This document shows, piece by piece, positions 3,137-28,652 of a DNA stretch of 34,424 nt. Source of the DNA: a bacterium (GTDB lineage: Bacteria; SZUA-182; DTGQ01; JAFGSM01); contig JBLIRP010000038.1 of the NCBI GenBank assembly GCA_049472355.1, forward strand, positions 1 to 34,424. The letters are read 5' to 3'. Numbering within the stretch: position 1 is the first letter of the stretch; every line of letters begins with the position of its first letter. The translations under genes and the position numbers were made by a program. Under the pieces are notes generated by a model. That model was not told where the DNA came from. It searched no databases and saw only the letters and a list, made by a program, of their open reading frames with translations.

Positions 3137-3368
3137 CAAGAAGTGACCGAACCAGAGGCTGAGTTTTCAGCTCCATTGATTTTATGATCGGTAGAAAAAG
3201 GGCTGCACAAATTGCTCGAGCGAAACTTCTTATAATTTCGGCTGCTTCGAGCCCTCGTTATATCGAAGTTCGCTCAGCTCAGCCTTTCGGGTTGGAATAA
3301 AATGTAAGGAATCCTGATGGAGCAATTAAGAAATAAGCACATAATAACGGATCTTGGGGGTGGTATTG

Positions 3369-5900: not shown

Positions 5901-5908
5901 GTGGCAAT

Positions 5909-7423: not shown

Positions 7424-7756
7424 TCCTCATCTGATAGAGCTGTGATTGGTAGTAGCTGTCGTCAGACCGAGATGACCAACTTAAATAATAAGTTACATCT
7501 GATGCTTGATGAAATGTTTGTCATTTTTGCCATGATAGTTGGGAGACAGGAAAAGATATTTGCTTTTGGCGAGTCAGATAATTTCTTCTCACATTTTGGA
7601 TGCCTTTGCCTAAGGAGGAATTAAAACTGTGGCAATTTCTTAATGCTGCGACAGGAGTTACAGGGTCAATGGAACTACTATTGTGTTTGTGGCAACTATG
7701 AGATGAAGGGAAATCAACAACAATTATAATTTATTACATAATTCGGAAGATATGGT

Positions 7757-9439
7757 ATGAACGATTTCTTATCCGGCGATAATTTACATTTAATCCAAGA
7801 TGATTTTGAGAGCAAAGTAGCCCGGCTATCCGCACTCTATGATATTTCACGGGATATTAACTCCATTTTTGACAGAGATGAATTGTTAAGATCGATTCTG
7901 CAAAAGGCCAAAAGGTTATTGAATGTTGAGGGTGCTTCTATTATCTTCTGGGACCAGAAGGAGAGGATGTTCTATTTCCCTGTGGTTGTTGAGGAAACAG
8001 AGGAAAGAGAGAGACGATTAAGGCAGCTCCGTTTTCCCGATAATTCGGGTGTTGCCGGTTGGGTCTTTCGTGAGGATAAACCTCTTTTGGTTCAAGATGT
8101 CAGCAAGGATGACCGTTTTTATAAAGAAATAGATAAATGCACCGATTGCGAAACGAAATCGATTTTATGTGTGCCTTTACATGGAAGAAAGGGGATATTT
8201 GGTGTCATTGAGGCGGTCAATAAGAAAAGTGGAGAATTCACTGATGACGATGAGCTCCTTTTAACCGCCATGGCAGATAATATTGCAACTTCAATAGAGA
8301 AGGCGAATCTCTATTATGATTTACAAAAGGCCTACTATGATTTACAAAAGGCCGAAGCCCTTCTGAGGAGACAAAATGCCCAATTGAAGAGATCTGTCAG
8401 GCAAAAATACAGCTTTGAAAATATCATCGGTATCAGTGAAGAGATTATGGATGTTATCAATAAGGCAGCACAGGTTTCCCTGACGGATGCTACCGTATTG
8501 GTCGTCGGAGAGACAGGGACTGGCAAGGAATTGATAACACAATCAATCCATAATTCCAGTTCCCGCGCCCTTAATAATTTCGTTGCCATAAACTGCGGTG
8601 CAATTCCTGAGAACTTGCTGGAAAGTGAGTTGTTCGGCCACGAAAAAGGGGCTTTTACCGATGCCACTCAGCGAAGAATTGGCCGATTTGAGGAGGCGGA
8701 TGGGGGGACACTTTTTTTGGATGAAATCGGCGATATGCCGCTGAGCCTACAGATCAAGCTATTACGCGTTTTACAGGACGGCGTTTTCCAGCGTATAGGC
8801 AGTAATCAGGATATCCCTGTAGATGTCAGGGTTATAGCGGCTACCAATCAGGATTTGGACATATTGGCAAAGAAGGGGATATTCCGTCAGGATTTATACT
8901 TTCGCCTTAATGTATTTGAATTGAAAATACCGCCCCTGCGAGAGCGGAGGGAAGACATTCCCCTCCTTATCCAACAATTCATAAGACTATATTCTAAAGA
9001 ATATGGTAAAAAGATCCTCGGTATAGAAATTGCCGCCCTTAATAATCTCTGCAAGTATGACTACCCAGGAAATGTAAGGGAACTGGAGAATATAATCGAG
9101 AGTGCTACAATCTTGTGCAAAAAGAATCTGATAGGGATTTGTGATCTTCCCCATAAGGTGAGTAATCTGAAGTCCCCCGGTACAATCCCAACAGCGCATG
9201 AGGATTTTTCCACCATCCCCAGAAACAATAAGGAATTAAAGGCTGCCAAGGCAGTGTCTCGAAAGAAGTCGGATGAAAGGATCGAAAGGCTGTTTCTGAC
9301 AGAACTCCTTACTCGTACGAGAGGTAATGTAACAGAAGCAGCCGGACAATCAGAAATGAATCGATCCTGGTTATCACAGCTAATCAATAAGCATAAATTG
9401 GATTTAAAGCAATTTCGAACGATTGCTCAGAAACCATAG
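7757..9439 (+). CDS. Sigma54-dependent enhancer-binding protein, GAF-AAA+-HTH (NifA/FhlA-like architecture)
   Basis: GAF domain (SGVAGWV...SILCVPL...GVIEAVNK), Walker [24 protein letters not shown] (GAFTGA variant), Walker [29 protein letters not shown]-terminal Fis-like HTH (GNVTEAA...NRSWL). Confidence 0.95.
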
Positions 9440-10090: not shown

Positions 10091-13000
10091 TTAGTAGGCT
10101 ATTGTAAATTTTGCCCAAACAATACGTTCCGGGTATATCACAGGGTGTGGAAGATCCATATCCTGATAATGAAGGTCTTCATCGAATAGATTTTTTACCT
10201 CAAATATTATAACTCCCAATCGCTTGGGAATTCGATATTTCACCGATGCATCAACTACCGGGAAACGATCATTACCCGGCTCGAATGTCCCTAAGGAATT
10301 TCTAAATTCCCCCCTCTGATCGATATATGTACCTTTCAATCGTGCGCTGAATCCCAAAGGGTGAAAGAAGCTGAGCGTGAGAGGAAACCGATGTGTCGTG
10401 CATCCAGTTATATCCTCCTCACCAGGGGCTTCAAGGGTCCTTTCGAATCGCTCAAACTGATATTCAAAACTGAGTGCCAGCCAGTCTTGAGGAGTCCAGC
10501 AGATATACGAGCGCCCCAATTGTTCATCCCAATCTGTCTGTCGTATCTCGTGAGACGGGATATCTTCGAACGGGACTTCCATCTCCCGGAGGGAGAATTC
10601 CGCCCCTGCATACACAGCATCAGAAAATCCTTGATCAATGCCGATTCCATATCGCCATGATTCCGTACCCTCCGTATCGTCGAAAAACTGATTGAAACCG
10701 GCTACCTGGGTAGGTTCGAGGGTCTGGTCTGAAATTAGTGACTTTTTTAGGACCCTGAATGCTGCTGCCCGCAATGTGGTACCAGGAAATGGATTCCAGG
10801 TCACTCCGAATTTGGGATTGAACTGATCGCGATCCACAACGGCATGAATGAAATCGGCGCTTCCTCCGATAGTCCACGTGATATTGCGCGGGTAGGTAAT
10901 CTCGGAATACGCATGGAGATTCGTATGGCGGATGCCGCTTTCTGTTATTGATATCATCGGAGTCGGAGGAAATGGCGGTGGAGGGGTCATCATCTCGATA
11001 TCCCTTCGATCCGCATCGAAATATCCCGTACCGCAGGTGATATGGAAGCGTTCCATGTTATAGACATACTGCACTTCAGCAATGTATCCATCCTCATCCG
11101 TTGTTATATCGCTTCCAGGAAATAGAAGGGTGTAGAAATCCGCATTGCGGAATATTGCAGATGCAATGAGATCGGCATGGGGGGGAAAAGCATGATGCAA
11201 TCCAAGTCGAAAGGAATCGATTTGCTCCTCTTGTCTCAGGGTGGGCAAAAAATTATCCCGATGGAATCTGAGGGGTAGATCACCCTTCTCTTTATCCGTA
11301 TATCGAAATTCCGCCTGGATCCCTGTTTCGGGTGAGAGGCGCATCTGCGTAAATACATCATAAACAACCTGCCTCTGGTCATTATTCTCTCTAAACCCGT
11401 CATTCTCATAGTAAAATTGTCCCAGGCTGTAAGACATCCTTCCCAACACGGCCGAGTGAACCATCTCATCACCAAATGTATCGTTTCCTCCGCTAATGCC
11501 GCTTACCTGAAATGCCATCCTGTTTCGATTGAAGAGATGGTTGAATTCATATGAGGATGGATCCCCGGGACCTGCCCCCTCCAGGATGAACGGATTGCTT
11601 TCGGCAAGTTGTGGCTGAACAGGGACTATGTTTATTGGTTGCAGGAGTTGGGATTTGAGGAGCTCGCTGACCCTGGCAATCTCATGACGTGGAAGCGAGG
11701 CGTATAGATCGGAGAGAAATCTGTGCACCGAATGGTTGCCTGGTGCCTCATTGAGTGATTTCCATCCCTCCACCAATGCAAGTTGGTGAAATCCGAGGTC
11801 ACGATAAACCCGGGCAAGGCTTACACTCCGTGCAGCAAGGTCCTCATCAAGCAGGAGGCGTGATCGGTAGACGGCCCGGTTTTCGTTTAGCCGGATGGAT
11901 TCTCGTAAATCTATCAGTGCCTCCACCGGCCGGTTGAGAGTCTGTTTTCGAATGGCGTCATAGAAATAAGGGGTTGGATCCAATGGATCAAGCTTCTTGG
12001 CGACATCAAATTGCTCCATGGCCAGCGTATCACGCCTTTCCTCGAAATAGGCCTTCCCCAAGTAGCTGCGTATGAGCGAGTTGCCCGGAGAAAGGCTTGC
12101 GGCAATCTCGATCTCCAAACGACCTTCCTCTAGATCACCTTCCCATATCCGTGCCAATCCCAGCCCCAGACGTGGGATGGGATCTGCCTGATCAAGTTCG
12201 ATTGCCCTGTAGAAGGAGTGCCTTGCATCATGAATCTTGATCTGGCTCAGATAGGCAAATCCCAGAACAGTATGCGGGTATGTCAGATGAGGGTTAAGGG
12301 CTACCGCTGCCGGGGCTGCTTGCAGTGCTCTATCGAGATCTCCTACGGACAGCCAGAGTTCTGCAATTCGAGCCCATGCAAGGGCATTTTCCGGATCCAA
12401 TCGGATTGCCTCTTGGAGACTTGCCAGTGCTCCTTTGAGATCAAAATGTGCTTGTTGTGCATATGAGTGCGCGATCCAGGCACCCGGGGATTTGGGATCA
12501 GTCTCGATGGCCTTTTTAGACAACTCAAGGGCCATGTCCTTCTCGTTCTGAACCACAGCAATGATTGCCTGCAGGGCAAAGGCATTGGGATGGAACGGAT
12601 CCAGCTTCAGTGCCCTTTCAATATCGATGCGAGCTGCATCAATACGTCCCACTGACAACAACAACTGCGATCTATAGGTAAAAAATCGGGGATCGAGGAT
12701 TCCTTCTCGAACCCCTTCAAGGCTCGAAAATGCCCTGGCCAGGTCACCCTTCCGGTAAAAATCAATAGACGATCGAACCGATGCCTGCCAATCGGATTCT
12801 TCTTTATCAGGAAAATCGGATGGCCGGTAATCCAAAACAGGAGGGTAGTAGAGAGCCCATTGTACTGCGTCCAGCGGACGCACCACGATGCGCACGATCG
12901 GAGGCTGCCCGGCCTGAGCCGCGGCTGATTGACCACCTTCCACCATGATGCCTCCTGCTTCGTTTGTTGCCATCACCTGACCATCAAAGACAGAAATGGC

Positions 13001-13456
13001 TGCCTGGGTTTGGTCAACCCGCATAAAAAATTCCGTGCCCTCTATCGCGGCATTCATAAATGGTGTCAGGACCTTTAAACTGTGGGGGAACCGACTGAAA
13101 AAATGGGCGGCTCCTGTCATTAGGTTGATTAAAAAGGTTTTTTTTTGATCCAAACCGGAGAATATAATCGTAGTCATATGATCAAGACGAATCGTGCCTC
13201 CGGTGCGGGCGGCAACATCTGCCCGGCTTCTTTCAAGCACCCGTATCATGTCGCCGAGACAGATTGTATCATTCAATGCCAAAGGCGCCCATTCCGACTC
13301 ACCAGCTCTCAGAATCTGAACGTCACCTTGCACCGATACAACTTGAGCGACCCATTCCTTGCATGTATTCGCAGCCCCAGGGCAGGGAAGGGTATGCATT
13401 ATCAAAAAACCGACAAGAACGGTAAGGATAAAATAAAGGACTTCGTCTCTCTTCAT
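10091..13456 (-). CDS. FecR-domain + TPR + outer-membrane beta-barrel receptor (TonB-dependent-receptor-like; NsrA-like architecture)
   Basis: Signal peptide; FecR motifs (VVSVQGDV, GDMIRV, TPFMNAAIEGTEF, VFDGQV); many TPRs; alternating beta-strand C-terminal half with VKNLFDE and terminal aromatic (KFTIAY). Confidence 0.9.
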   Translation of the reverse strand: MKRDEVLYFILTVLVGFLIMHTLPCPGAANTCKEWVAQVVSVQGDVQILRAGESEWAPLALNDTICLGDMIRVLERSRADVAARTGGTIRLDHMTTIIFSGLDQKKTFLINLMTGAAHFFSRFPHSLKVLTPFMNAAIEGTEFFMRVDQTQAAISVFDGQVMATNEAGGIMVEGGQSAAAQAGQPPIVRIVVRPLDAVQWALYYPPVLDYRPSDFPDKEESDWQASVRSSIDFYRKGDLARAFSSLEGVREGILDPRFFTYRSQLLLSVGRIDAARIDIERALKLDPFHPNAFALQAIIAVVQNEKDMALELSKKAIETDPKSPGAWIAHSYAQQAHFDLKGALASLQEAIRLDPENALAWARIAELWLSVGDLDRALQAAPAAVALNPHLTYPHTVLGFAYLSQIKIHDARHSFYRAIELDQADPIPRLGLGLARIWEGDLEEGRLEIEIAASLSPGNSLIRSYLGKAYFEERRDTLAMEQFDVAKKLDPLDPTPYFYDAIRKQTLNRPVEALIDLRESIRLNENRAVYRSRLLLDEDLAARSVSLARVYRDLGFHQLALVEGWKSLNEAPGNHSVHRFLSDLYASLPRHEIARVSELLKSQLLQPINIVPVQPQLAESNPFILEGAGPGDPSSYEFNHLFNRNRMAFQVSGISGGNDTFGDEMVHSAVLGRMSYSLGQFYYENDGFRENNDQRQVVYDVFTQMRLSPETGIQAEFRYTDKEKGDLPLRFHRDNFLPTLRQEEQIDSFRLGLHHAFPPHADLIASAIFRNADFYTLLFPGSDITTDEDGYIAEVQYVYNMERFHITCGTGYFDADRRDIEMMTPPPPFPPTPMISITESGIRHTNLHAYSEITYPRNITWTIGGSADFIHAVVDRDQFNPKFGVTWNPFPGTTLRAAAFRVLKKSLISDQTLEPTQVAGFNQFFDDTEGTESWRYGIGIDQGFSDAVYAGAEFSLREMEVPFEDIPSHEIRQTDWDEQLGRSYICWTPQDWLALSFEYQFERFERTLEAPGEEDITGCTTHRFPLTLSFFHPLGFSARLKGTYIDQRGEFRNSLGTFEPGNDRFPVVDASVKYRIPKRLGVIIFEVKNLFDEDLHYQDMDLPHPVIYPERIVWAKFTIAY

Positions 13457-13494
13457 ACCTTGCCCCTTTTAAAATGTTAGGACCTGTGTATTGT

Positions 13495-15756
13495 TCATTC
13501 TGCAATCCTTCCTGATAGCCTATTTTTACGGATGTTAATCATCCCGTTCCATTCACCGCCCGGTGAATTCTCTCTATACTTCTTACACAATTCCAGGTAA
13601 AAGAGTGAAGGCCCATCTTGTTCCTTGATTTTCATGGAGTGATTAAATTTCTCGATTGCCTCTTTCCATGAGCTTCTCCTAAAGGCAGTTAATCCTTCAG
13701 AGAACACCTCGCAGAGATCCTTTTGGAATGCCTGAGTTTCTTCTATCCGGCATAGTAATTCATAAACCTCAACCGGCTTTGCCTTCCCTGCTAAAAGGAA
13801 CCTTCCGACTTCTCTTACCAAAAAACCATTGTGATTAGAGAGGACCTCTTTAGATATCAGGATCTTAGTACCTAAGGTTTTATTTAAACCTTCTATCCTT
13901 GATGCTGTATTGACCGTATCTCCTAGGACACGAACTTCCATATGATCACGAGCGCCCACAATGCCGAGCAACATTTCTCCGGAATGTAAACCAATCCGGG
14001 TCGGAAGTATGAAGATTTCAGAGCACTGATTGAATTGGTGAAGTGCGGTTTCAATACCCAGTGCTGCGGAACAGGCCCTCTCCATCAGCCCGGAATCAGA
14101 GGGTCTACCAGCCCATATGGCCAGTATGGAATCCCCTTTGACATCAATCACGGTCCCGCCATGTTGCTCTATGGGTGTAAAGACAACCTTAAAATATTTA
14201 TTTATGAAGATACTGAGTTCCTCTGGACCTATGGTTTCCGAGAGGGATGTATAGTCTTCCGCATCGGTAAACAAACATATGCCGTGGAGCATTTTTTTTA
14301 TTGTCTGGTTTCTGGGTAGATTTTTCACCAAATCCTCCACTACATCGCCAGGTACGATCTTTTTAAGAACCTTTTTGATATCTTCACGCTCCCTGTTTGT
14401 GTCGAGATATTTCCACTGTGCAATGGCAAAAAAGGCTAGGGGAGTTTGAAAAAATAACGGGATAACCAATGGGAACCAAGTGCCGTTATTGCCAAATTGA
14501 TAGACTGCAGACAATAAGAAAAGGATTCCCATCGCCACTACCCCTCCCATGGCAATGAACGGAGAGAAGAGGCTGCAACATATTCCTGCCACACATCCCC
14601 AAAGAAAAAAAATGGAGGTGTATGCACAGGGACCCAATGGGTGAATTGCCCTATCCTCTAAAAGGTTGGCAAAAGCAGTGGCAGCAATTTCGACACCACT
14701 GATATTATATCCACCTTTTGTGAAGACTGTTGGGTATCCGTCAATTTGTTCAGAGTATGTTTGGGCGGAAGATCCGATAAAAACAGCTTTGCCGTTAAAA
14801 TCGAGGGGCCTATGATTGAATTCTATTTGAGCCTGAGGTTCCAGTAATTGGTAATAAGAAATAGTAGTGAGGGTGCGAGGAGGACCATAAAAATTCAGGT
14901 ATTGGTTATCAGGACCCTGGTACATTCGTACGAGCGATTTTAGAAGTCTGGACCTTTTCTCATTGAGTGATGTAATCCGTGAATCCCTTAAATGCTTAAG
15001 CATCTTCCGAGCAATTAGCGGCTCCTTTTCAAACATATTCTTTGTGATCCTTATAAAGTTCTTAACCTGTTTGGTCCTGATCAATTCCTCTTTGCTCCAC
15101 GGGAGATTATCAATGGTGGATGGACTCACGTTTCGCAATAATTGGATAAATTCATCATATACCTGGAGCGAGAAGATTTGAAATGTTACAACTGGCAAGG
15201 TCGGCACATCTCCGGCACTTGTCTTAAATGGCCAATAACACTTAACCTCAACAGGCTCTATAGGCAGGGGAAACGGGGCACATGCGGCAGCAGATTCTGC
15301 AAGTGGTAAAATGGGAGGAACCTCTCTCTCAAAAATCAATTCTGCTTCATCTATCCCCTTTTTATCTGTCTTGAGGCTTGCACATAAGACCACTCTATCC
15401 GCATTCCGAATTGCTTCAGCAAATACGGCATCTTCTGAAGATGAACGTGTCTCATTGAAAAAAATGTCAAAGGTGATGACTGATGCCCCTCTTTTGACCA
15501 GATTATCGATCAGCCTGGCATGTAAAACGCGAGGCCACTTGCCGGGTTTTAATGGTAGGCTGAGATGGTCGGATGAGACCTCATCAATGGCTACGACAAT
15601 GACTTCTGATGGAGCCTCCCGATGTCCTCTAAGGCAGAAGAGCAGATCTAAGCCGATGTTTTCCTCAACATAACTTCCGATAGGAGAGATGCCTGCCATC
15701 AAACCTAATAGGCCAATCAGCAGACTCAGTAGTATTGCCCTTGTTAAACGAGACAT
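13495..15756 (-). CDS. CHASE2-domain class III nucleotidyl cyclase
   Basis: CHASE2 motifs (VIVVAIDE, WPR..HARLID.L...GA.VI.FDIFF, GKAVFIG, SGVEI.ATAFANLL), three TM helices, cyclase motifs LFTD, KGD, RIGLHSG, GDTVNTASRIEGLNK, and a C-terminal TPR-like tail. Confidence 0.93.
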   Translation of the reverse strand: MSRLTRAILLSLLIGLLGLMAGISPIGSYVEENIGLDLLFCLRGHREAPSEVIVVAIDEVSSDHLSLPLKPGKWPRVLHARLIDNLVKRGASVITFDIFFNETRSSSEDAVFAEAIRNADRVVLCASLKTDKKGIDEAELIFEREVPPILPLAESAAACAPFPLPIEPVEVKCYWPFKTSAGDVPTLPVVTFQIFSLQVYDEFIQLLRNVSPSTIDNLPWSKEELIRTKQVKNFIRITKNMFEKEPLIARKMLKHLRDSRITSLNEKRSRLLKSLVRMYQGPDNQYLNFYGPPRTLTTISYYQLLEPQAQIEFNHRPLDFNGKAVFIGSSAQTYSEQIDGYPTVFTKGGYNISGVEIAATAFANLLEDRAIHPLGPCAYTSIFFLWGCVAGICCSLFSPFIAMGGVVAMGILFLLSAVYQFGNNGTWFPLVIPLFFQTPLAFFAIAQWKYLDTNREREDIKKVLKKIVPGDVVEDLVKNLPRNQTIKKMLHGICLFTDAEDYTSLSETIGPEELSIFINKYFKVVFTPIEQHGGTVIDVKGDSILAIWAGRPSDSGLMERACSAALGIETALHQFNQCSEIFILPTRIGLHSGEMLLGIVGARDHMEVRVLGDTVNTASRIEGLNKTLGTKILISKEVLSNHNGFLVREVGRFLLAGKAKPVEVYELLCRIEETQAFQKDLCEVFSEGLTAFRRSSWKEAIEKFNHSMKIKEQDGPSLFYLELCKKYRENSPGGEWNGMINIRKNRLSGRIAE

Positions 15757-18304: not shown

Positions 18305-18571
18305 ATGACGGGACGAAAGTGGCTCATGGCGGCCATGTTCATGGCAACTTTCCTAATCGTGGGATTCTCGATGTTCATGCTCAGGGCAGGGCGTATTTCG
18401 GCTCTAACGAGTTACTGGACGCCTCAGACGGCATCATACCCGACGAGCTATTTCGATTCATTCACCAACTGGCCAAACAATGCCTTCCCGTTTCAGACCT
18501 CCTCATGGCCCCAAACCTATTCCCGCTTTTCACATCATTATGCCACGGCTGTGAGGAGGGAAGAAAAATGA
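18305..18571 (+). CDS. Small secreted low-complexity (S/T/Y/W/P/F-rich) protein, possibly a truncated remnant
   Basis: SD AGGAGGGAG before ATG 18305; signal-peptide-like N-terminus; stop overlaps the next start (ATGA at 18568-18571). Confidence 0.6.
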   Translation: MTGRKWLMAAMFMATFLIVGFSMFMLRAGRISALTSYWTPQTASYPTSYFDSFTNWPNNAFPFQTSSWPQTYSRFSHHYATAVRREEK

Positions 18572-20559
18572 GATTTCAAATCGTTGAAACCCTTGCCATC
18601 ATCCTGATAATGGCCCTTCTTCTGTTCCTGCCCCATGCCGGAGGCGCCCAATATCCTGCATTTCAATATGGGCCAGGATTTGGTGCCTGTGCAGGCCCTT
18701 TTGAACAGCCCTTCTTTCCTTCCGCCTCTGCCTGGTCCGGGGGATTGTATGTGCAATCACCCTATTCGAGCTATGCGGACCCCCTGCGCATGATATATGC
18801 GCAGTATTATTCATATGGCATTCCAATTGATCCCTCCGAACGATCCAACAAGGTGGATGTTTCTCAAATACCCTCGGAATATGTCAGGCAGATTGAGCTT
18901 GTCGGTGACTATGCGTATCTTTTGCTTTCCTCAAGGGAAGCCATCATATTGAGGATTGTCGATATCAGCGATCCCGACAACCTGGAAATCGTTAAGAACG
19001 TGGAATTGGAGACATTTCACAATTTTATCAGGATATTCCCGTTTGATGGGTATCTTTTCTGGATCGGGCTCTCACCCGCGACAAGGCAGGAGCAGGATGG
19101 CCCTGCAAAGGATACCGTGGGGGTGTTCGATATCTCGAATCCCGCTGATCCGCAAACAATGGATAGCCTGGAAATCGACCTTTCTCCGCAATATGAAGCC
19201 ACCGGGGATACCTTCGGCTTTGTCGGAGGGGATCGCGCATACATCTATTACAGACAGATCAAGGAGGGAACAAGCGGCCTTGTGGTCATCGATACCTCGG
19301 ATCCCGAAAACCTGAGCATGATCTGCTGTAATGAACTGTCCTGGCCTGACGGGGAACCCCGCATTGCGCATATCCTTGCCAGTGATGACACCCTGTTCCT
19401 TTTTGGGGAGGCAGAATTGTATCTGATGGATATGTCCGATCCTGAGCACCCGGCCATGCTGTCCACACTGGGCCAGGGCCGGGGAAACTCGCCGCACATT
19501 CCGTCCCTGTTCGGTGATTATCTGTGCATCCCCGGCGGCAGATGGCTGGCCCTGGTGGATATCCGGGACCGGGCCCATCCGGAGCTGGCCGGATTCATGG
19601 AATTGCCGGATCAGACTGGACGGTTCATCAAACACGGCGATCGCATGTTTGCGGCTGATATGCATAGAGGGCTTGTGGCGATTGACATATCCAATCCCGA
19701 GGCCCCGGAAATACTCCCCGGGTATCGGTTCCCCAAACAAGACAGGGACGATCACGGTTCGATTGAGGATCTGGCGGTTCAAGGGAATCTGATTTATACA
19801 GCGCAAGCATATGATGCACTCCAGATATTGGATGCATCGGATCCACAGGATGTCATAAAAAGAGGGGAAATCGGAACCTGTCGTTCGACTATCTATCCCT
19901 ACCAGAAGGGTGAAAAATTTCCTGACCGTCTCATCGTTACCCTCACCATTGAGGCACACGAAGCGGTTTCCCTCGGCAAGGACGGGTATATTGCCACCTT
20001 CGGGATTGCCTCCCTGGATCAGCTTAATCACACCTATGGGGTCTTTATCATAGCCCCGCCAAAGTACCCGGCGACCTTGGGCGGTATCCATGAACGCCTC
20101 TATAGACAATACATCCTGCTATTTCCGGATGTGGATGACATCTATGACATTCAAGCGGATTATGAGGATGATCCCCATTGTGTGATAGCGGAATTCCAAT
20201 ACGGGGCCAGTTCAAATACCGGCTCAAGCGGAGACCATTCCGGAGGATGCGAATATTATAGCTCGATTTGTCAACTAAATGGCACCTATCAGGGCCTGAT
20301 TCTTCGTCTGGGACAATCCCTGAACCCATGGCAATATTCCTACGCAAACCAGTGGACCACCTATTCACCAAGCGGGCTCGCCTCATGGTCTTCTCCTGCC
20401 CTTCGGTCAGCCACGAATACGTGGTGGTATAATCCCCTGCAATTTTCATTGTATAGCTATCCCACGATTCCAACAATGAAATATATCGGGCCGAATATAT
20501 GGAATTACGCGCAACCCAATTATTACCCATGGGGAATCGTTTACACTTCCCAACTGTGA
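18568..20559 (+). CDS. Secreted LVIVD-repeat beta-propeller protein with subtilase-prodomain-like module and aromatic-rich low-complexity termini
   Basis: SD GAGGAGGG before ATG 18568; signal peptide ...LPHAGGA|QY; about 7 blades (IVDISDP, VFDISNP, VIDTSDP, LMDMSDP, LVDIRD, AIDISNP, ILDASDP); then PDRLIV..GIASLDQLNHTYGV..LYRQYILLFP..YEDDPHCVIAE; Y/W/P/S/N tail. Confidence 0.85.
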   Translation: MRFQIVETLAIILIMALLLFLPHAGGAQYPAFQYGPGFGACAGPFEQPFFPSASAWSGGLYVQSPYSSYADPLRMIYAQYYSYGIPIDPSERSNKVDVSQIPSEYVRQIELVGDYAYLLLSSREAIILRIVDISDPDNLEIVKNVELETFHNFIRIFPFDGYLFWIGLSPATRQEQDGPAKDTVGVFDISNPADPQTMDSLEIDLSPQYEATGDTFGFVGGDRAYIYYRQIKEGTSGLVVIDTSDPENLSMICCNELSWPDGEPRIAHILASDDTLFLFGEAELYLMDMSDPEHPAMLSTLGQGRGNSPHIPSLFGDYLCIPGGRWLALVDIRDRAHPELAGFMELPDQTGRFIKHGDRMFAADMHRGLVAIDISNPEAPEILPGYRFPKQDRDDHGSIEDLAVQGNLIYTAQAYDALQILDASDPQDVIKRGEIGTCRSTIYPYQKGEKFPDRLIVTLTIEAHEAVSLGKDGYIATFGIASLDQLNHTYGVFIIAPPKYPATLGGIHERLYRQYILLFPDVDDIYDIQADYEDDPHCVIAEFQYGASSNTGSSGDHSGGCEYYSSICQLNGTYQGLILRLGQSLNPWQYSYANQWTTYSPSGLASWSSPALRSATNTWWYNPLQFSLYSYPTIPTMKYIGPNIWNYAQPNYYPWGIVYTSQL

Positions 20560-20959
20560 GGGGGGAACTGATTTGCCCCATCGTTCGGTGTTGATACGAA
20601 TATTTTTTAACACGTCGAACATTCATGAATCCTCGATTCACCCGGGGGTATGAAAACACCCGGAGGGCGATTTTCAGGTGAGATACGATAAGATATTTGT
20701 TCAGCCGAGAGGGTGGGTGCCGTTACAAACATACGCATACGGGAGTTCATTCCCACAGACGGGCATCTTCTATGAGCCGCTATGGCCTGCAACGTCCGCC
20801 TACATAAATCTCCCGATGTCTTATACATCAATCCTTAGAGAAGATTTTTGAAATCATATGGACCGGCTGTTAACCATCCAAACACGTGGACGTGGGTATA
20901 GCCTTGTATGACCTTTATCTTCACCTGATCAACACATGCTTAGAGAAGGGAGTAAGATT

Positions 20960-21664
20960 ATGGATCGAAACAAAAATAATAAAATGTTTTTGAAATGCCT
21001 TTTGGTCGGTATGGTCATACTGACCTTGGTCCATTTGATGCAAGTTTCAGGATCATGTGGCCAATGGTCGCCTTACTACGGCAGCGGATATGGATCCTAT
21101 CTCGGCTATGCCGGATCCTCCGGATACGGTTCCTGGAGCGGCTTATATGCCGGATCCCCTGGATATGCGACTTCAAGTTACTATCCCTTTCAAGGAGGCT
21201 ACCCTTCAACCATTCCCTTGATGCAGCCGTGGAGTCAAATCATTAGGGCAGGGCAGTCGTATCAGTATGCATGGATGCCTTCCTCCGGATGGGGGACCAG
21301 GTACCCGCCGTATTCTTTGTCGTCTTCGTATCTCGGTGGATATCCATTTTCTCAAGGGTTTTCTTCCTATTTGAGTTCCTCTAGTCCCTGGCCGTACATG
21401 TCGGGTGGAACGAAAATTCAATACAGCAGTCCTACAGTGATTCAAGGAACCAGGATTACCGGCCGGGTTACTGGATCTAATACCATAGATTCAAACGGTA
21501 AGATAATCAAATGCTATATCCACGGCATGGCTCAGGCGGCATATGGGGAACTCGACCTTTCCCCCTACCTGGGGATGGTGGTGGAGGTGTCCGGAGAGCT
21601 CCAAATGAGCAATAATTCCCAGGGTTCTCTCTATGGGGCACGATTTGAGAGGGTTATCTCCTGA
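20960..21664 (+). CDS. Secreted Ser/Gly/Tyr-rich low-complexity protein with small C-terminal beta (OB-like) domain
   Basis: SD AAGGGAG; signal peptide ending SCG|QW; ~120 aa of GSGYGSY-type sequence; C-terminal LSPYLGMVVEVSGEL. Confidence 0.8.
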   Translation: MDRNKNNKMFLKCLLVGMVILTLVHLMQVSGSCGQWSPYYGSGYGSYLGYAGSSGYGSWSGLYAGSPGYATSSYYPFQGGYPSTIPLMQPWSQIIRAGQSYQYAWMPSSGWGTRYPPYSLSSSYLGGYPFSQGFSSYLSSSSPWPYMSGGTKIQYSSPTVIQGTRITGRVTGSNTIDSNGKIIKCYIHGMAQAAYGELDLSPYLGMVVEVSGELQMSNNSQGSLYGARFERVIS

Positions 21665-21883
21665 TCCGGGCAATTGAGGGGTGCCATACGTATCTGGCGT
21701 TTAAGTCAATAATTGCTGTATGGCGTGCCCGGAATGCGGAAACGATGAAGTCCCCTTTGTACCCTGTGCCAAGGTAAGCCCTGGTAAGGATAAATTCCTC
21801 TTCCCCTGCCCCTGTCCGTGCGGCCTATACCGTCACAAAGGGGGATGGTGTGGATTCTGCCAAGCCTTCCGCCCTATGCGCAT

Positions 21884-22357
21884 GTTCCATCAGTCAACGA
21901 TCTGGCCGGAAGCGGGGATTATCTGTACATGATTGCATCGGGCCAGGAGGGCCAGGAGAGACTCTTTGTGGTTGATATCTCCGACCCGCTCGGCGACGTA
22001 TCCACCTACAAGGCCCGATCGGTTGCAGTGCGGAGTGACCATGCCTGCATCATTGGTCGCGAAGGTTTTCAGATCATCGACATATCCGACCCGGATTCTC
22101 CTTCCTCTGACTTTTCGCCGGCGAAATCTCTTTATCTCGCCAATCTTCCAATCCTGAATCACCGTGGTTTTCCGGGGGTGGTTCAGGGGCTTTTGACTAT
22201 GGGCCTTCTTAGCCCTGGCAATACGCTCAATTATTTTTATCCGGCTATTTACCCGGGGCCTTGGAGATATTACACCTATCCAGGAGCAAACGCCCATGCC
22301 GCTTTAGCGGCGCCACGAAGAATGAAAATGCTATATTTTCAGATGAAACGCACATGA
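21884..22357 (+). pseudogene. Fragment of an LVIVD-repeat gene (about 2 blades plus aromatic-rich tail)
   Basis: VNDLAGSGDYLYM..LFVVDISDP and ARSVAVRSDHACI..GFQIIDISDP, then YFYPAIYPGPWRYYTYP. No convincing start or signal peptide. Confidence 0.65.
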
Positions 22358-22371
22358 GCCGGATGAAACTG

Positions 22372-22405
22372 CGAATATCGAATATCGAATGTAGAATGTA
22401 GAAGT
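22372..22405 (+). repeat. Heptamer tandem repeat (CGAATAT/AGAATGT x~5)
   Basis: cgaatat cgaatat cgaatgt agaatgt agaagt. Confidence 0.7.
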
Positions 22406-22644
22406 GAAACGCAGATAAGCCTTCGGCTCACAAAGATGCATGAAAATACCCAAAGGGGATTTTCAAGTGAATACAGGATATTTTCGTAACACCTATCCCG
22501 GAATTATTTGACATCTATCCATATGATTTTCCTCGCGTACTGCCTTAAATACAATTCCGCTCCTTCCCTCTCTCCAGCGATGCTACTTCTCCGGAATACC
22601 ATTCCCCGCTTCACCATCTGCTACGTTCAAATTGAATATTTGTA

Positions 22645-22674
22645 TTGACAAAAATTAGATATCCTGCCTATAAT
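22645..22674 (+). promoter_or_regulatory. Sigma70 consensus promoter TTGACA-N18-TATAAT
   Basis: Exact -35 and -10 hexamers about 240 bp upstream of the LVIVD gene. Confidence 0.7.
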
Positions 22675-22915
22675 TTTTTCAGAAAGGCAAATTTTTATCG
22701 AACAAGTTCTTATCATAAAAAAGTTTTTCACTCTTTATGACGCCCCAAAGTGGTATGAAAGTATGTTCTGAGAAAAAGATTTTTTTCCATGCTTCATGGC
22801 GTTGTGTAGTTGTAGGAGGCTTCATCGTGACAAATACCATATTCATCCTTGCTTGGTAGCAAATTTGCTTTTCAAGATGGGCATGGTAAACAAAACATAG
22901 GTTGAGGGCTTGGAG

Positions 22916-25570
22916 ATGTATAAGAGGTCCTTCATAGAACCCATATGTTCAATGTTATTTCTTTTCAGCCTGATCCTTCCAAGGATTGGAAATGCCGCAG
23001 CCCCGGTTATTACATCCATAGAACCGGATTTTGGAATCAATACCGCTCCCACTACTATAACGATCAATGGATCAGGCTTTTCACCCATATCTACGATTTC
23101 CCTCTACGGAGGAGGGCCATATATAACCGGCTCCTGCAATACGCCGGGTCATGCTCTCAATGTCTATGTAGCCGGGACCTGTGCCTATGTAGCTGATCAT
23201 GATTCGGGTCTGCAGGTGATCGATATCACCGATCCCGCTCATCCTGTTATCGTGGGCTCGTGCGATACACCGGGCTCAGCTAATGGTGTCCATGCAGCCG
23301 GGATCTATGCCTATGTGGCTGATCATGATTCAGGTCTGCAGGTAATCGACATCACCGATCCCGCCCATCCTGTTATCGTGGGCTCGTGCGATACACCGGG
23401 CGCAGCCAATGGTGTCCACGCAGCCGGGACCTATGCCTATATGGCTGATCATGATTCAGGTTTGCAGGTGATCGACATCACCGATCCAGCCCATCCTGTT
23501 ATCGTGGGCTCGTGCGATACACCGGGTTCAGCCAACGGTGTTCATGCAGCCGGGACCTATGCCTATGTAGCTGATGGAGGTGGAGGGCTGCAGGTGATTG
23601 ATATCACCGATCCAGCCAATCCTGTTATCGTGGGATCCTGCGATGCGCCGCGTTATGCTCTCAATGTCTATGTAGTCGGGACCTATGCCTATGTGGCTGA
23701 TTATGACATTTATCATTTTTGGCCTCAGAAGATTACAGGTCTGCAGGTGATCGATATCACCGATCCTGCTCATCCTGCAGTAGCAGGCTTCTGCGATACG
23801 GTGTCTGATGCTTTCGGTGTCCATGTGGCAGGCTCCTACGCCTATATGGCTGCTGAATCAGGGTTGCAGGTGATCGACATCATCGAACCCACAAATTTTA
23901 CCATCGTGGGCTCCTGCTATATGCCGGGTCGGGCTTTAAGTATCGATGTAGTGGGCGCCTACGCCTATGTGGCTGATTATGATTCGGGATTGGAGGTGAT
24001 TGACATCACCAATCCTGCACATCCTGCCATTGTGGGCTCCTGCGATACCTCGGGTTGGGCTTACGGTGTTCACGTCGTCGGGTTTTATGCCTATGTGGCT
24101 GAATATTCAAAGCTGCAGGTGATCGACATCACCGACCCTGCGCATCCTGCCATTGTGGGCTCCTGCGATACGCAGGGTTATACCCTTGAAGCCGGGGCTC
24201 ACTGTGTACATGTAGCCGGCGGCTACGCCTATGTGGCCAATTATGATTCAGGTCTGCAGGTGATCGACATCACCGATCCCGCTCATCCTTCCGGCGTGGG
24301 TTCCTGTGATACGCTGCATTGGGCTCACGGTGTACATGTAGCCGGCGGTTACGCCTATGTGGCTAATTACGATCCAGGGCTGCGGGTGGTCGATATCACC
24401 GACCCTATGCATCCTACCATCGTGGGCTCCTACCATCTGCCAGGTGCTGCTTACGATGTCCAGGTGGCTGGCTCCTATGCCTATATGGCTGATGATTCAG
24501 GTCTGCAGGTGCTCGATATCACCGACCCTATGCATCCTACCATCGTGGGCTTCTGCAGTACGCCGGGTTGGGCTTATAGTGTCCATGTAGTCGGCACCTA
24601 TGCCTATGTGGCTGATAGGTATTCCGGGTTCCAGGTGATTGACATCACTGATCCCGCTCATCCTGCCATCGTGGGCTCCTACTATACGCCGGGCGAGGCT
24701 CGCGTTGTTCAGATAGCCGGTTCCTACGCCTATGTGGCTGACGGGGGCGGCGGGCTTCTGATTTTAGACCAATGGAAGCCGCTTATGAACATCACCTCTA
24801 TTGATTCGGGCACCATTACCGCCACTGTGCCTGAAGGCTACAAACCGGGCGTCTATAGCCTGCATCTCACCAACCCGGATGGAGAGCATATCATGATTCC
24901 CAATATGTTCCAGGTGTGCCAGACCTATTATAAAGACCATGACCTGGATTCGTATGGGATGGAGAATGATTATATATGTTCCCATGATCCGGAAGGAGAG
25001 TATAGGGCAATCCAGGGTGGGGACTGCAATGACGATGATGCCCCTACCCATCCCGGCGCCGTCGAGGTCTGCGATGGGATGGACAATAACTGTGATGGAA
25101 ATGTCGATGAAGGATTTGATCGTGATACCGATGGCTATACCTCGTGTGCCGGGGATTGTGATGATAACGATGGCGCCGTATATCCGCGAGCCCCCGGAAC
25201 CTATAAGGGTAAGGATAATAACTGTAATGGGATTGTAGACAAAGATGAGATGAGACGATCCATATACCCAATATACACCTCTATCATTCCATCAGGCTCA
25301 CAATATCAACAATTATTGGCGCTTTCGTTTTTGCCGTTATATTCGAATCAACAAAGGCAAATTTGGTATGAGTATCAATATACCTTTTATCAACAGCAAA
25401 TAACAAAGGCCATATCTTCCGGAAATCAATCCTGGATTTCCAATATCCAGCCCTATTGGCAGAAACCGTATTTACCGTGGTATTTTCTGGAAAATGAGAG
25501 TCTGTTTAAAAATACGATTCCAGCCTTGCGGATGCGCAGAAAGACGATGGATCCGGATCCACAAAGATGA
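22916..25570 (+). CDS. Secreted surface protein: IPT/TIG domain interrupted by 13 LVIVD repeats, MopE-related Cys/Asp metal-binding motifs, Y/Q/W-rich tail
   Basis: Signal peptide ...RIGNA|AAPVITSIEP; 13 repeats of ~42 aa (IVGSCDTPG.A..V.V.G.YAYVAD..SGLQVIDITDP); GDCND....HPGA.EVCDG.DNNCDG.VDE motifs; aromatic/Gln tail. Start is 22910 (TTG) or 22916 (ATG). Confidence 0.92.
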   Translation: MYKRSFIEPICSMLFLFSLILPRIGNAAAPVITSIEPDFGINTAPTTITINGSGFSPISTISLYGGGPYITGSCNTPGHALNVYVAGTCAYVADHDSGLQVIDITDPAHPVIVGSCDTPGSANGVHAAGIYAYVADHDSGLQVIDITDPAHPVIVGSCDTPGAANGVHAAGTYAYMADHDSGLQVIDITDPAHPVIVGSCDTPGSANGVHAAGTYAYVADGGGGLQVIDITDPANPVIVGSCDAPRYALNVYVVGTYAYVADYDIYHFWPQKITGLQVIDITDPAHPAVAGFCDTVSDAFGVHVAGSYAYMAAESGLQVIDIIEPTNFTIVGSCYMPGRALSIDVVGAYAYVADYDSGLEVIDITNPAHPAIVGSCDTSGWAYGVHVVGFYAYVAEYSKLQVIDITDPAHPAIVGSCDTQGYTLEAGAHCVHVAGGYAYVANYDSGLQVIDITDPAHPSGVGSCDTLHWAHGVHVAGGYAYVANYDPGLRVVDITDPMHPTIVGSYHLPGAAYDVQVAGSYAYMADDSGLQVLDITDPMHPTIVGFCSTPGWAYSVHVVGTYAYVADRYSGFQVIDITDPAHPAIVGSYYTPGEARVVQIAGSYAYVADGGGGLLILDQWKPLMNITSIDSGTITATVPEGYKPGVYSLHLTNPDGEHIMIPNMFQVCQTYYKDHDLDSYGMENDYICSHDPEGEYRAIQGGDCNDDDAPTHPGAVEVCDGMDNNCDGNVDEGFDRDTDGYTSCAGDCDDNDGAVYPRAPGTYKGKDNNCNGIVDKDEMRRSIYPIYTSIIPSGSQYQQLLALSFLPLYSNQQRQIWYEYQYTFYQQQITKAISSGNQSWISNIQPYWQKPYLPWYFLENESLFKNTIPALRMRRKTMDPDPQR
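23123..24768 (+). repeat. Coding tandem repeat, 13 units of ~126 bp (LVIVD blades)
   Basis: Recurrent GCCTATGTGGCTGAT...CTGCAGGTGATCGA(C/T)ATCACCGA; units 2-4 are nearly identical at DNA level. Confidence 0.9.
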
Positions 25571-25681
25571 AATACCATCAGAACTGATTGCGGGGATTAG
25601 ATATATCGACGATAGTGAAGATGGAAGGATCGCCGCCTAATGTCGTACACAACATTTGACAATACATCATAGCCGCACGGT

Positions 25682-26070
25682 GATGAGCGGTCCGAAAAAG
25701 CCTACATAGCCACCTTGGTGCCTTCGCCGATTTTGAATTCGGCGAACATTTTGCTGTTGTCTTTATCCTGCGGCAATGTCAGGGCAAACTCATAGTTCAG
25801 GGCATTGATCGTTGCCAGGGCCATACTTCGTTCAATAGGGCGGTCGCTTTTTATCTGTTCCAGGAGCTTCACAGCCGGCCCGCCCTCATAGTCGAAGGGT
25901 GTGTTCAAGGCCATGCAGGATGTCTTATCGGTATAGTACGTATAGGACAGGCCGATCCCTCCGTCCGACAAGGTCACGGCAGTGTACCCAAGGCCGAGAC
26001 TTATTGTCTCCACGCTGACGGCCTCGGCTTTATGTAAAAAAAGATCATAGAGGGTTTGACTTAATTTCAT
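25682..26070 (-). pseudogene. DUF4213/DUF364-family (Rossmann-like, putative metal-binding) gene, frameshifted and truncated
   Basis: N-terminal GLGYTAVTLSDGGIGLSYT...ALATINAL. At KVAM the DNA reads ATG TAG GCT TTT TCG; restoring one G gives the family-typical M-V-G-F-F-G-P-L-I, after which similarity stops. Confidence 0.75.
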
Positions 26071-26099
26071 TCTCCTTCTGTCCCTTTTTAATCCCTATT

Positions 26100-26160
26100 G
26101 GTTTAATTCCCAGCCCCTTGGGGCGGATTATCTTGATGCCCCGCTGCTTGTGCGGGGGGG
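26100..26160. repeat. REP-like palindromic intergenic repeat (copy 1)
   Basis: GGTTTAATTCCCAGCCCCTTGGGGCGG...GATGCCCCGCTGCTTGTGCGGGG, similar to the units at 32086 and 32174. Confidence 0.65.
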
Positions 26161-26252
26161 GGAAATGGCCGGTTTCTTCAGCCCCTGGAGATAGTCCGAA
26201 TGAGGGTGGATTTCCCGCACCCTGGTGTCCGGTAAAGAGTGTATTGGACGCC

Positions 26253-26675
26253 TCACGGGCGGGCAAGGTCACGGTTCCACGATGTCTTTTCTATGAATTT
26301 CCTGATATTCGCCTCGATGATATCGGCGACCATCTCATAGGCCTGCACCCCCTCCCCATAGGGATCGGGGATCTCCCATTGGATTTTCTCTCCGTTGAAA
26401 TAGTAAGGGATAATCCTTTCCAGGGGAAAGGATGCCATGCCGATGATGTAATCCATTTCGGCAATGGGGATCTCCTCGAGCCCCTTTGAATACTGGTCGG
26501 AGATGTCGATTCCCCTCTTCGCCATGATCTCGTATACCCCATTGGCCACCATCCCCAGGGGGGAGATTCCTGCCGAATACGCCTTGTATAGTCCCTCACC
26601 GAGGACCTTTGAGAGCCCCTCGGCGATCTGGCTGCGGCACGCATTGGCATAGCATATAAAGGCAACCTTTTTCAT
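26253..26675 (-). CDS. LMW-PTP fold protein (ArsC-like arsenate reductase or low-molecular-weight phosphatase)
   Basis: P-loop CYANACRS (CX5R), YSAG, GIDISDQYSK, WEIPDPYG. Lacks the downstream resolving Cys pair. Confidence 0.85.
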   Translation of the reverse strand: MKKVAFICYANACRSQIAEGLSKVLGEGLYKAYSAGISPLGMVANGVYEIMAKRGIDISDQYSKGLEEIPIAEMDYIIGMASFPLERIIPYYFNGEKIQWEIPDPYGEGVQAYEMVADIIEANIRKFIEKTSWNRDLARP

Positions 26676-27221
26676 TGTGTCATCCCATCTTAGGGTTATG
26701 AATTGTCTATGCAAAGGGAGGTGATATCACCATGGGCATGCACATCCCCTTGCATGGTCCCTCCGCTACGGGGCAGGCCCGAGGGAAACGTTATTTATAA
26801 AAATGCTATTATAAAATTGGTATTAAAAAATGGCATTATAAAATAATTTTACGGTAAAATAAAATTATGAAGCGTCACCCCCGCCTTCCTGCAAGACCCC
26901 GGCGATCACCACAAAAATTCTGATCTTACATGCTGTAGTGATTTGAATATGTTATGTTTTATGCCCGGCGCTTCCCGCTCTACAACCCTGGACGGGTGCC
27001 GGACGGATGGCAGCATCCCATCCGGCACTGTTAGCGTGTCTGCATTTTCCGGCTCGTTCGAGTCGTAACCATTGAGAAAACACTCCCGTCTCTTTTAAAG
27101 AATGGATTTGTGCATTATAATATCATTAGAAGATACATGCGTATTGTAAAAAATATATGATCATTCGTCAGGATGGCAGAATAATAATATTTAAATACAG
27201 TAACATAGAAACATATGACCA

Positions 27222-27237
27222 TGGTATGATAATTGCT
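27222..27237 (+). promoter_or_regulatory. Candidate sigma54 (-24/-12) promoter
   Basis: TGGTATGATAATTGCT = GG-N10-GC with TTGC, in AT-rich DNA about 600 bp upstream of the YGYPQ gene. Confidence 0.5.
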
Positions 27238-27830
27238 TATTGGCTATTATTAGAGTAATCCTTTGACCGAGCAAAACGTTACATCCCTGTTTTTACACTT
27301 CATTTGTTTTTCAGGACTATCATATATCGACGACAGTAAGAAAAGAGATGATATGACGTGGCTATGTATTTGGTTGTCATTTTTTTAATTATTGTCAGCC
27401 TCTATTTTTTGCCTCCGGGTTTTGACTCCATTTTTTATTCCCCTTCGGCAAATAGGACCTATAAGTGCCTGTATGTCCCCAAATGGTTTTTCTCGATTGT
27501 CATGAGCCCTCCTGTTCTTAACGCGCGTGATACCCGTCACGGGACGCCCCTTCTCCGGATGGTTGACGCTTTCGTTCTACCCTGGAAAACTCCTCTTCCA
27601 TTGCCCGTTCCTTCCGTTTTTCACCTTGGTGCGGTTTTTATGCCTGTGGGTCATAGGCCTTAGACATACGAACGTAATTTTATACACTGCATTGATTCAA
27701 GCAGTTCCTTGGATCATTCTTGAGAAGGTACATTTATCCGAAATGCGAAGGGGGTGTTAATGGAGAACAAAGGACGCAGTGCTGTTTGAGAATACCGGTA
27801 CATAAACGAGCCTTTTTGAGGAGGTGCATC

Positions 27831-28652
27831 ATGGTTTCAAAAAGGGCAAATCATCTGTTTTTTATTGGTATTATGGTTCTCATTGTATCACTCTCGTTAT
27901 GCCTGCCCAGTGCCCACGGGCAATGGGGCTACGGATATCCCCAGTATGGGTATGGACCCCAGTACGGCTACGGATATCCCCAGTATGGGTATGGGTACGG
28001 ACCTCAGTACGGGTACGGATATGGCTACCCGCGCCAGGGATATGGCTATCCCCAGTATGGCTATCCCCAGTATGGCTATCCCCAGTATGGCTATCCCCAG
28101 TATGGCTATCCGCAGTATGGCTATCCGCAGTATGGCTATCCGCAGTACGGCTATCCGCAGTACGGCTATCCTCAGTACGGCTACCCTCAGTACGGCTATC
28201 CCCAGTCCGGCTACCCTCAGTACGGCTACCCCCAGTACGGATACCCTCAGTACGGCTACCCCCAGTACGGATACCCTCAGTACGGCTACCCTCAGTACGG
28301 CTACCAGTACCCATACACCACCCCGCAGTATGAAGACGCCGATCTTGATCTGGATTCTGCAGACAATGGAGACGACTTCACCGTGGACGTAGGGGACACC
28401 ATCAGTATCATACTCTCGTCGAACCAACCCTCGGGCTATCAATGGGTGCTCGACACCGGTGATCTCGATGACGATATCGTCGACAAGGACAGCTCCCAAT
28501 ATTTCCCCGCCTATAATATATACACAGGCGGAACCGAACAGTGGATCTTCGAGGCGAAGGACGTCGGCACCACCACTATTAAGCTGGAATATATGTATGG
28601 ATTGTATACGGTCCAGAGCACCTTCGAGGTGGAGATCACCGTTGAGGAATAG
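27831..28652 (+). CDS. Secreted YGYPQ-repeat protein with C-terminal chagasin/I42-like Ig domain
   Basis: SD GAGGAGGT before ATG 27831; signal peptide ...PSAHG|QW; Y/G/P/Q tract; acidic domain DNG...[18 protein letters not shown]...[10 protein letters not shown]...GTTTIKLEY. Confidence 0.9.
28041..28295 (+). repeat. 15-bp coding tandem repeat x17 (YGYPQ)
   Basis: TA(T/C)GG(C/A)TA(T/C)CC(C/G/T)CAG units; all differences are synonymous except one Tyr-to-Ser change at 28206. Confidence 0.95.

Follow-up and report, generated by a model that had tools for sequence, protein, structure and literature searches.

Whether long tracts rich in tyrosine and almost free of charge, fused to unrelated exported proteins, serve a common purpose is the question raised by positions 18,305 to 28,652 of contig JBLIRP010000038.1, a stretch of bacterial DNA of 34,424 nucleotides that is referred to as the window. 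A sequence-only reading had proposed that the tracts found there are a generic tag which recruits different domains into an assembly outside the cell. Comparisons within the genome and across the order to which it belongs point, with some reservation, to a similar answer: once outside the cell, the tract proteins likely stick to one another and form a coat that would hold the fused enzymes and binding domains.

Tyrosine-rich tracts in the window

Six open reading frames (ORFs) carry the tracts, five of them intact and one a remnant, and the window coordinates of all six, as well as the presence of the tracts, are confirmed. Domains were identified by Pfam scan, while tract limits and composition were counted from the translations.

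18305..18571, + strand: ORF of 88 amino acids (aa) with a hydrophobic N-terminus and then an aromatic/Ser/Thr tract; free of cargo
18568..20559, + strand: ORF of 663 aa, predicted secreted; signal peptide, tract, LVIVD propeller, unannotated domain, tract
20960..21664, + strand: ORF of 234 aa, predicted secreted; signal peptide, 119-aa Y/G/S tract, small beta domain
21818..22357, + strand: remnant (the 21884 ORF); LVIVD fragment lacking a signal peptide, with a weak tract, entering a dispersed repeat
22916..25570, + strand: ORF of 884 aa, predicted secreted; signal peptide, TIG, 13 LVIVD, MopE repeats, C-terminal Y/Q/S tract
27831..28652, + strand: ORF of 273 aa, predicted secreted; signal peptide, 137-aa tract, acidic chagasin (I42) inhibitor domain

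In 27831 the tract (aa 30-166) is 37% Tyr, with 1 charged residue in 137 and 18 YGYPQ units, and in 20960 (aa 34-152) it is 16% Tyr with 3 charged residues. The tract of 22916 (aa 783-864) has 13% Tyr and 18568 has tracts at both ends (aa 28-92 and 561-663; 14% Tyr). That of the remnant is weak (11% Tyr), and that of 18305 (aa 31-78; 8% Tyr, 25% aromatic) lies below the strict Tyr filter used for the genome. The stop codon of 18305 overlaps the start of 18568 as ATGA, and searches of Pfam and NCBIfam with 18305 gave no match. The tracts of 27831 and 22916 are individually rich in Gln. Paralogues of the 22916 tail lie on contig C123, and genome G004 has a homologue that bears a tract (locus L129).

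All five intact ORFs have basic-then-hydrophobic N-termini, judged by eye or heuristic, in agreement with the signal peptides assigned earlier. Among the cargo folds assigned at the same time, LVIVD, TIG and chagasin I42 are recovered by Pfam, but the OB-like fold of 20960 is not: no Pfam family matched, and a single-sequence model of the C-terminal domain has a pLDDT of 42.6, with GroES as its best structural match (Z 4.0, rmsd 3.3, 67 residues aligned). This beta domain is present in 3 of 20 other genomes, and the single orthologue of 20960 examined in full (locus L117) retains the tract.

Within the window the tracts share composition and not sequence, as had been noticed, but genome-wide some tract tails fall into sequence families. 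The sequence-only reading had pointed to FUS-type proteins, in which [G/S]Y[G/S]-rich tracts drive phase separation or fibrils. The uncharged tracts share this motif with FUS-type low-complexity domains across the genome (462 motifs in 87 of 113 tract ORFs), but in the window the motif is frequent only in 27831 (8) and 20960 (2); the other four ORFs are sparse, with one in 18568 and none elsewhere.

A genome-wide set linked to export

The window cluster represents only a small part of a set that extends through the genome. A strict filter (per 40 residues at least 6 Y, at most 3 charged residues and at least 26 of Y/G/S/P/Q/W/N/T) was run on the 26,191 stop-to-stop ORFs of at least 60 aa in this genome (G000), which is 87.5% complete. 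The filter is passed by 115 ORFs on 63 of the 148 contigs, leaving 113 when two antisense shadows are removed. Chance is excluded, as 0 of 2525 residue-shuffled proteins pass in each of three pooled shuffles. Compared with background, tract residues are high in Tyr (18.4% versus 3.4%) and Gly (26.9% versus 8.2%) and low in charge (2.5% versus 23.2%); the tracts are poor in His (0.2%) and contain 3.3% Ala. Gln and Asn are at background level (Q 3.6% versus 3.1%, N 2.9% versus 3.3%, together 6.5% versus 6.4%), so that the earlier label "prion-like" is not supported. GGLY occurs 192 times in 33 of the 113 ORFs. Copies of one and the same peptide unit differ in their codons; 16 YGGL units, for instance, have 9 DNA forms.

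Genes and signal peptides were called with a home-made gene caller and heuristic. A signal-like start was found in 85 of 87 tract genes compared with 683 of 2267 other genes (p=3e-40), so the tracts are almost confined to proteins with a predicted signal peptide, a point on which the sequence-only reading had staked itself. A composition score places tracts in 86 of 549 soluble signal-peptide genes and in 8 of 1667 genes lacking a signal peptide (130 and 19, respectively, with a broader filter). Most of the exceptions listed are fragments, genes at contig ends or genes with mis-called starts; another is a short Tyr cluster in a kinase that is presumably of the Wzc type. Among the 86 proteins the tract is N-terminal in 32, C-terminal in 19 and internal in 11, and the remaining 24 consist of tract throughout. 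A lipobox-like motif is present in 2 of them, versus 38 of 394 others. The predicted +1 residue is Gln in 36% and Tyr in 20% of tract proteins, versus 11% Gln in other proteins; a search for glutaminyl cyclase (PF05096), a possible explanation of Gln at this position, found none.

Distribution and conservation in the order

Comparisons covered 13 genomes of the order, 7 others of the class and 11 outgroups, that is 18 outside the order. A YGGLYG codon pattern occurs 11-206 times in 13/13 order genomes, in 0/7 class genomes and once each in 2/11 outgroups, with reversed controls giving 0-3. Two modules described below behave alike: PPYN gives 10-66 matches in every one of the 13 order genomes, which all have the AEQAG barrel as well, and both are missing from the 18 outside. 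By these markers the system spans the whole order. Since the order genomes are kin and not independent, the distribution counts as one origin. The lineage is diderm-like, with Omp85 and, from a loose motif scan, an LpxC motif.

The sequence-only reading had also depended on the tracts being kept in orthologues. Their sequence has changed and the tract is retained. The 27831 gene is matched in 11 of 12 other order genomes, and in four orthologues examined in full the tract is built from different units (YGPQ/YPQ, GGYYP/YQQP, YQYNP and YGQNP). Tracts of differing sequence are found in 6/6 orthologues of 18568 that were examined, and a more distant LVIVD protein has no tract. The differing units in orthologues and the codon-diverse repeats suggest that selection acts on tract composition.

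Two cargo domains, selected by the analyst, allow the tract to be compared with other anchors. The unannotated KPAIYLYP domain carries a tract in 17/17 homologues that are at least 56% identical and in 0/28 at 51% identity or lower; among these 28 there are 3 with a dockerin, 6 with a lipobox pattern and several with N-terminal membrane anchors. The Cthe_2159 protein of this genome has a 165-aa tract and no lipobox. Among the best 120 of its 7912 homologues (44-65% identical) an appended tract is found in none, the lipobox pattern is found in 83, and 7 filter matches lie inside the folded C-terminal region; those named among the best 120 belong to Anaerolineae, Sedimentisphaerales, Thermodesulfobacteriota and Bathyarchaeia. 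These exchanges suggest that the tract occupies a slot held elsewhere by lipoboxes, dockerins or membrane anchors, which favours the anchoring part of the generic assembly or anchoring tag proposed earlier.

Components and cargo

Approximately one quarter of the set is made up of a signal peptide and a tract only, for example (YGGL)n-WW and (GMYG)n. In another group the tract is joined to the AEQAG beta domain (a 12-member cluster, 18 ORFs by motif). The AEQAG barrel resembles an avidin-family cluster with a TM score of 0.69 over 114 residues, both being predicted models, which is under the bar for naming it, and comparison with PDB sequences gave nothing better than E 0.96.

The PPYN module of about 155 aa is rich in Pro and aromatic residues, nearly uncharged, and present in 34 ORFs, often in tandem arrays. 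Its AlphaFold model has a pLDDT of 87.5 and a pTM of 0.84. Matches to PPYN were found in 94 cluster representatives of 1.84 billion. No match to the fold was found in Foldseek, PDB sequences or NCBIfam, the best VIA-align Z was 2.3, and the PPYN region had no Pfam match in 16 homologues. Chloroflexota clusters in Atlas (score 0.88-0.90) are leads only. The predicted PPYN subunit is possibly a new fold, missing structural matches being no proof. In some homologues PPYN is fused to LVIVD, beta-helix/PKD or AEQAG domains, so that the PPYN and AEQAG modules are joined to each other and to cargo. Loci of this predicted secreted module (PPYN-WPLWSP) are found at G000:C82:3679-10790 (L054), at C116:57265-59815 (L058), on C27 and C52, and embedded in C72:21179-34921. 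Genes for a sulfatase and a sulfatase-TPR protein adjoin the PPYN array and other tract genes (G000:C82:3-2872 and C17; L054, L060).

Cargo was identified by a Pfam scan of 51 of the 113 tract ORFs. It includes peptidases and peptidase inhibitors (subtilases, C25, C39, alpha-2-macroglobulin, Kazal, chagasin) as well as cohesin, polysaccharide deacetylase, sugar dehydrogenase, Ig and propeller domains and a multiheme cytochrome. By its predicted domains this cargo is of extracellular type, and it is more acidic than other exported proteins (-0.083 versus -0.027 charge per residue, n=33 versus 372). Routine periplasmic and outer-membrane proteins were not found among the tract proteins scanned. 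The cytochrome, a predicted secreted protein of 3257 aa at G000:C92:11990-21787 (L050), combines Ig domains and a MopE repeat with a Tyr tract that lies internally. Elsewhere, clusters of multiheme cytochromes with doubled CXXCH lie with NHL propeller proteins (L055, L072, L063, L064) and suggest extracellular electron transfer. Two further small families, a secreted one with YYTNP...WxLLQ and one with a YYPVQT tail, are unannotated and present in 4-6 copies each (G000:C2, C20, C41, C127, C129).

Comparison with known systems

Several known systems were searched for. Curlin had no Pfam match in the 51 tract ORFs scanned, and CsgG matches are pieces of about 55 residues within frames of 720-740 aa, no full-length CsgG being found in the 87.5%-complete genome. 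The genome has two PEP-CTERM matches and one dockerin match, all of them outside the strict tract ORFs. SLH domains gave no match in the genome and did so in controls. The T9SS domain TIGR04183 had no match, here or in the positive-control genomes, and TIGR03000, a family of exported planctomycete proteins with a Gly/Tyr tail, had none in 21 genomes in a search lacking a positive control. By the tests run, the tract system is not a member of the curli, PEP-CTERM, SLH/dockerin or Q/N prion systems. Dityrosine cross-linking had been suggested earlier. Multicopper oxidase, DyP, class I peroxidase and cytochrome c peroxidase (PF07731, PF04261, PF00141, PF03150) were not found in this genome, at its 87.5% completeness, and were matched in controls; because no such laccase or peroxidase was found, resilin-like cross-linking of this kind is not supported, and other enzymes may be present. 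Tyrosine sulfation of the RaxST type was considered as well: the sulfotransferase PF13469 is present in 11/13 order genomes and also in 4/7 class genomes, and in G000 it is confined to contig C35, where no ORF passes the strict tract filter.

Like the tract, the lipobox, dockerin, SLH, PEP-CTERM and T9SS C-terminal domain are portable modules on many unrelated surface cargoes, but they are defined by sequence and have a dedicated partner or enzyme. The tract, unlike these classic anchors, is defined by composition, stands at either end and also occurs free of cargo. Curli (CsgA/B/F/G) resemble the proposed coat in being a Sec-exported, self-assembling matrix protein. The Bap1-57aa peptide of Vibrio cholerae biofilms reportedly has a basic and aromatic make-up and a propeller host. 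It is adhesive and co-aggregating and, unlike the multi-protein tract set, a single short insert (PMC13733808). The anammox S-layer or matrix protein Brosi_A1236 is likewise bacterial and extracellular, and its disordered region gives rise to liquid droplets and gels and favours aggregation; however, it is one protein with a Thr/Ser/Gly-rich tail, tyrosine not being mentioned in the paper, and not a tag on about 100 proteins (PMC7482068).

Squid suckerins and beak proteins (HBPs) share with the tracts GYG/GGY/GGLY repeats, high Tyr and many paralogues (PMC11931252). The amorphous M2 modules of suckerins consist of GYG/GGY/GGLY/GLGGY and assemble with no covalent bonds, and GV8, a suckerin peptide of 8 Gly/Leu/Tyr residues, assembles into beta-sheets and hydrogels (PMC11931252). 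In the tract ORFs the initial seven residues of GV8 occur 16 times, in 5 ORFs. Suckerins are, on the other hand, animal proteins with Pro-flanked, Ala/His-rich crystalline modules that the bacterial tracts lack; the available parts of the source describe no cargo-tagging role for them (PMC11931252). The likeness is one of composition. By analogy, the coat likely works as suckerins and the phase-separating Brosi_A1236 do.

A proposed coat and the points against it

Tract proteins would be exported by Sec, with cleavage predicted from their sequence immediately before Gln or Tyr. The genome encodes type II secretion and pilus components, and passage of the outer membrane would probably use the type II system. 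As a side observation, G013, a 3.4-Mb genome of the same class, has 15 secretin matches. The bulk of the matrix would likely be formed by the tract-only proteins, the 34-copy PPYN proteins and the tract-barrel proteins, held together by aromatic and hydrophobic "stickers" with no covalent cross-links, as in suckerins. Any cargo gaining a tract would then partition into the matrix, its acidic folded domain facing water. As such cargo would enter the matrix, the tract would do the job of lipid anchors, dockerins and sorting signals; the evidence for this is comparative and the binding is proposed. We regard as possible, though more tentatively, that the order builds a suckerin-like self-assembling envelope layer from Gly/Tyr polymers and PPYN in which composition alone sorts the cargo, a "condensate address" replacing lipid anchors and dockerins.

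Several points weigh against the coat. The signal-peptide heuristic is loose (30% background) and does not distinguish periplasm from exterior. Secretins are equally common outside the order, so that the machinery is not order-specific, and no dedicated export or anchoring gene adjoining tract genes was found in the neighbourhoods. Tract types are heterogeneous (G/Y/L, Y/P/Q, S/Y/W) and may serve different ends. Tractless proteins of extracellular type are common, including 6/11 MopE ORFs and 2/5 LVIVD ORFs. A tract-negative set (144 of 442 scanned) includes solute-binding proteins, TolB, PPIase, CtpA, amidase, Omp85 and secretin, but it was picked as negative and shows only that such proteins exist. 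The order membership of the 17 tract-bearing KPAIYLYP homologues is itself inferred. Density is low in parts of the order: 2 tract ORFs, one an antisense shadow, in 200 kb of G006 and 1 in 140 kb of G009, with 3 in a sampled 60 kb of G011. For this reason the 0 tract ORFs in 268 kb of class-level control stretches are weak alone, the more so because the stretches from the order were taken from contigs on which matches had been found before. RNA is uninformative; one run contained 5% of the window's words, and the RNA contigs, of low depth and spanning convergent genes, give no evidence either way on expression. No experiment, image or proteome for the lineage was found in the accessible literature.

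Alternative explanations

The tracts might be individual membrane anchors or secretion signals that share no matrix. They do stand in for lipoboxes and membrane anchors, many have an aromatic or glycine-zipper-like GGLG run at their end, and the genome has 5 secretin matches. However, 24 of 86 proteins are tract only and have nothing to anchor, the tracts are 40-230 aa long, sequence-divergent and found at any position, and the 34 PPYN paralogues suggest bulk material. This explanation appears rather unlikely.

A coat confined to a cyst- or spore-like resting stage and controlled by a developmental regulon would agree with the protease inhibitors frequent among the cargo, and Bacillus spores have Tyr-rich coat proteins. 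Most tract genes also have a long upstream gap of their own (86% over 100 nt), and some have a putative promoter of the kind seen in the window:

22854..22868, + strand: sigma-54-like -24/-12 site upstream of the 22916 gene; putative, matched to the consensus

Such sites are found in 18 of 113 tract genes versus 61 of 1310 genes with long upstream gaps, the pattern having been chosen post hoc. They are nevertheless limited to 16% of tract genes, and hydrolase and cytochrome cargo fits active cells; Spo0A and sortase motifs had no match in a crude scan that is too loose to use. We consider a resting-stage coat quite unlikely.

It is improbable that the main role of the aromatic matrix is to bind metals or minerals, or to conduct charge and so wire displayed multiheme cytochromes to sediment minerals. 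Tyr makes up 18% of tract residues, the genome has many multiheme cytochromes and the one of 3257 aa bears a tract, but 30 of 35 ORFs with at least 3 CxxCH are tractless by the broad filter, and His, Cys and acidic ligands are missing from the tracts.

Glycine-zipper bacteriocins exist, and GGLG/GGLM runs are found in small secreted proteins of the set. That the tract-only proteins are antibacterial peptides of this type or aggregates, and the cargo tracts unrelated linkers, is still very improbable, given that no immunity or transporter genes adjoin them among the neighbourhoods listed, that dozens of enzymes are fused to tracts of like composition, and that tracts exchange with anchors. Neutral expansion of low-complexity sequence, or a pro-region that is cleaved off, in either case with no part in assembly, could account for the fast shift of repeat units and tract lengths between close relatives, but is hardly credible for tracts that are confined to export-signal proteins, codon-diverse, kept across the order and rich in Tyr, which is costly to make.

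Other features of the window

Two repeats, the first overlapping the end of the remnant, precede the 22916 gene:

22283..22490, strand not assigned: dispersed repeat of about 200 nt; 127 BLAST pieces in G000, numerous in G001 and in G005
22555-22725: another repeat, intergenic; found as 11 pieces in G000 and present in G001-G005 too

The first of these would be MITE/REP-like, and the second holds TTGACA-N18-TATAAT at 22645-22674. A shared upstream element of tract genes was considered and rejected: the two repeats are not tract-specific, and the k-mers are mainly Shine-Dalgarno words. The strong Shine-Dalgarno GGAGGT precedes 33 of 135 tract genes versus 30 of 414 other signal-peptide genes.

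Further upstream, positions 3354-9439 encode a TPR protein with a CHAT (caspase-like) domain, an ORF of 504 aa that has no annotation and a sigma-54 activator of the GAF type. At 10091-15756 a fusion of FecR, TPR and a TonB-like barrel adjoins a CHASE2 adenylate/guanylate cyclase.

Significance

The tract system is real and order-wide. No description of it was found in the literature searched, mostly open-access journals, and it would be categorically new if the assembly step holds. To our knowledge, the tags that anchor proteins to bacterial surfaces are motifs of defined sequence, each recognised by a dedicated protein; the comparisons made in this uncultured order point to a composition-defined tag, used on about one fifth of the soluble export-signal proteins (86-130 of 549). 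The set supplies natural fusions of Gly/Tyr polymers with cargo, and an unannotated, well-predicted module with no structural match. The idea is directly testable with synthetic genes and no culturing. If the tracts self-assemble, condensate and "sticker-spacer" ideas would extend from the eukaryotic cytoplasm and squid biomaterials to the bacterial envelope. If the reading is true, the order would have a new principle of surface display and, with it, a natural library of modular bioplastic and adhesive sequences.

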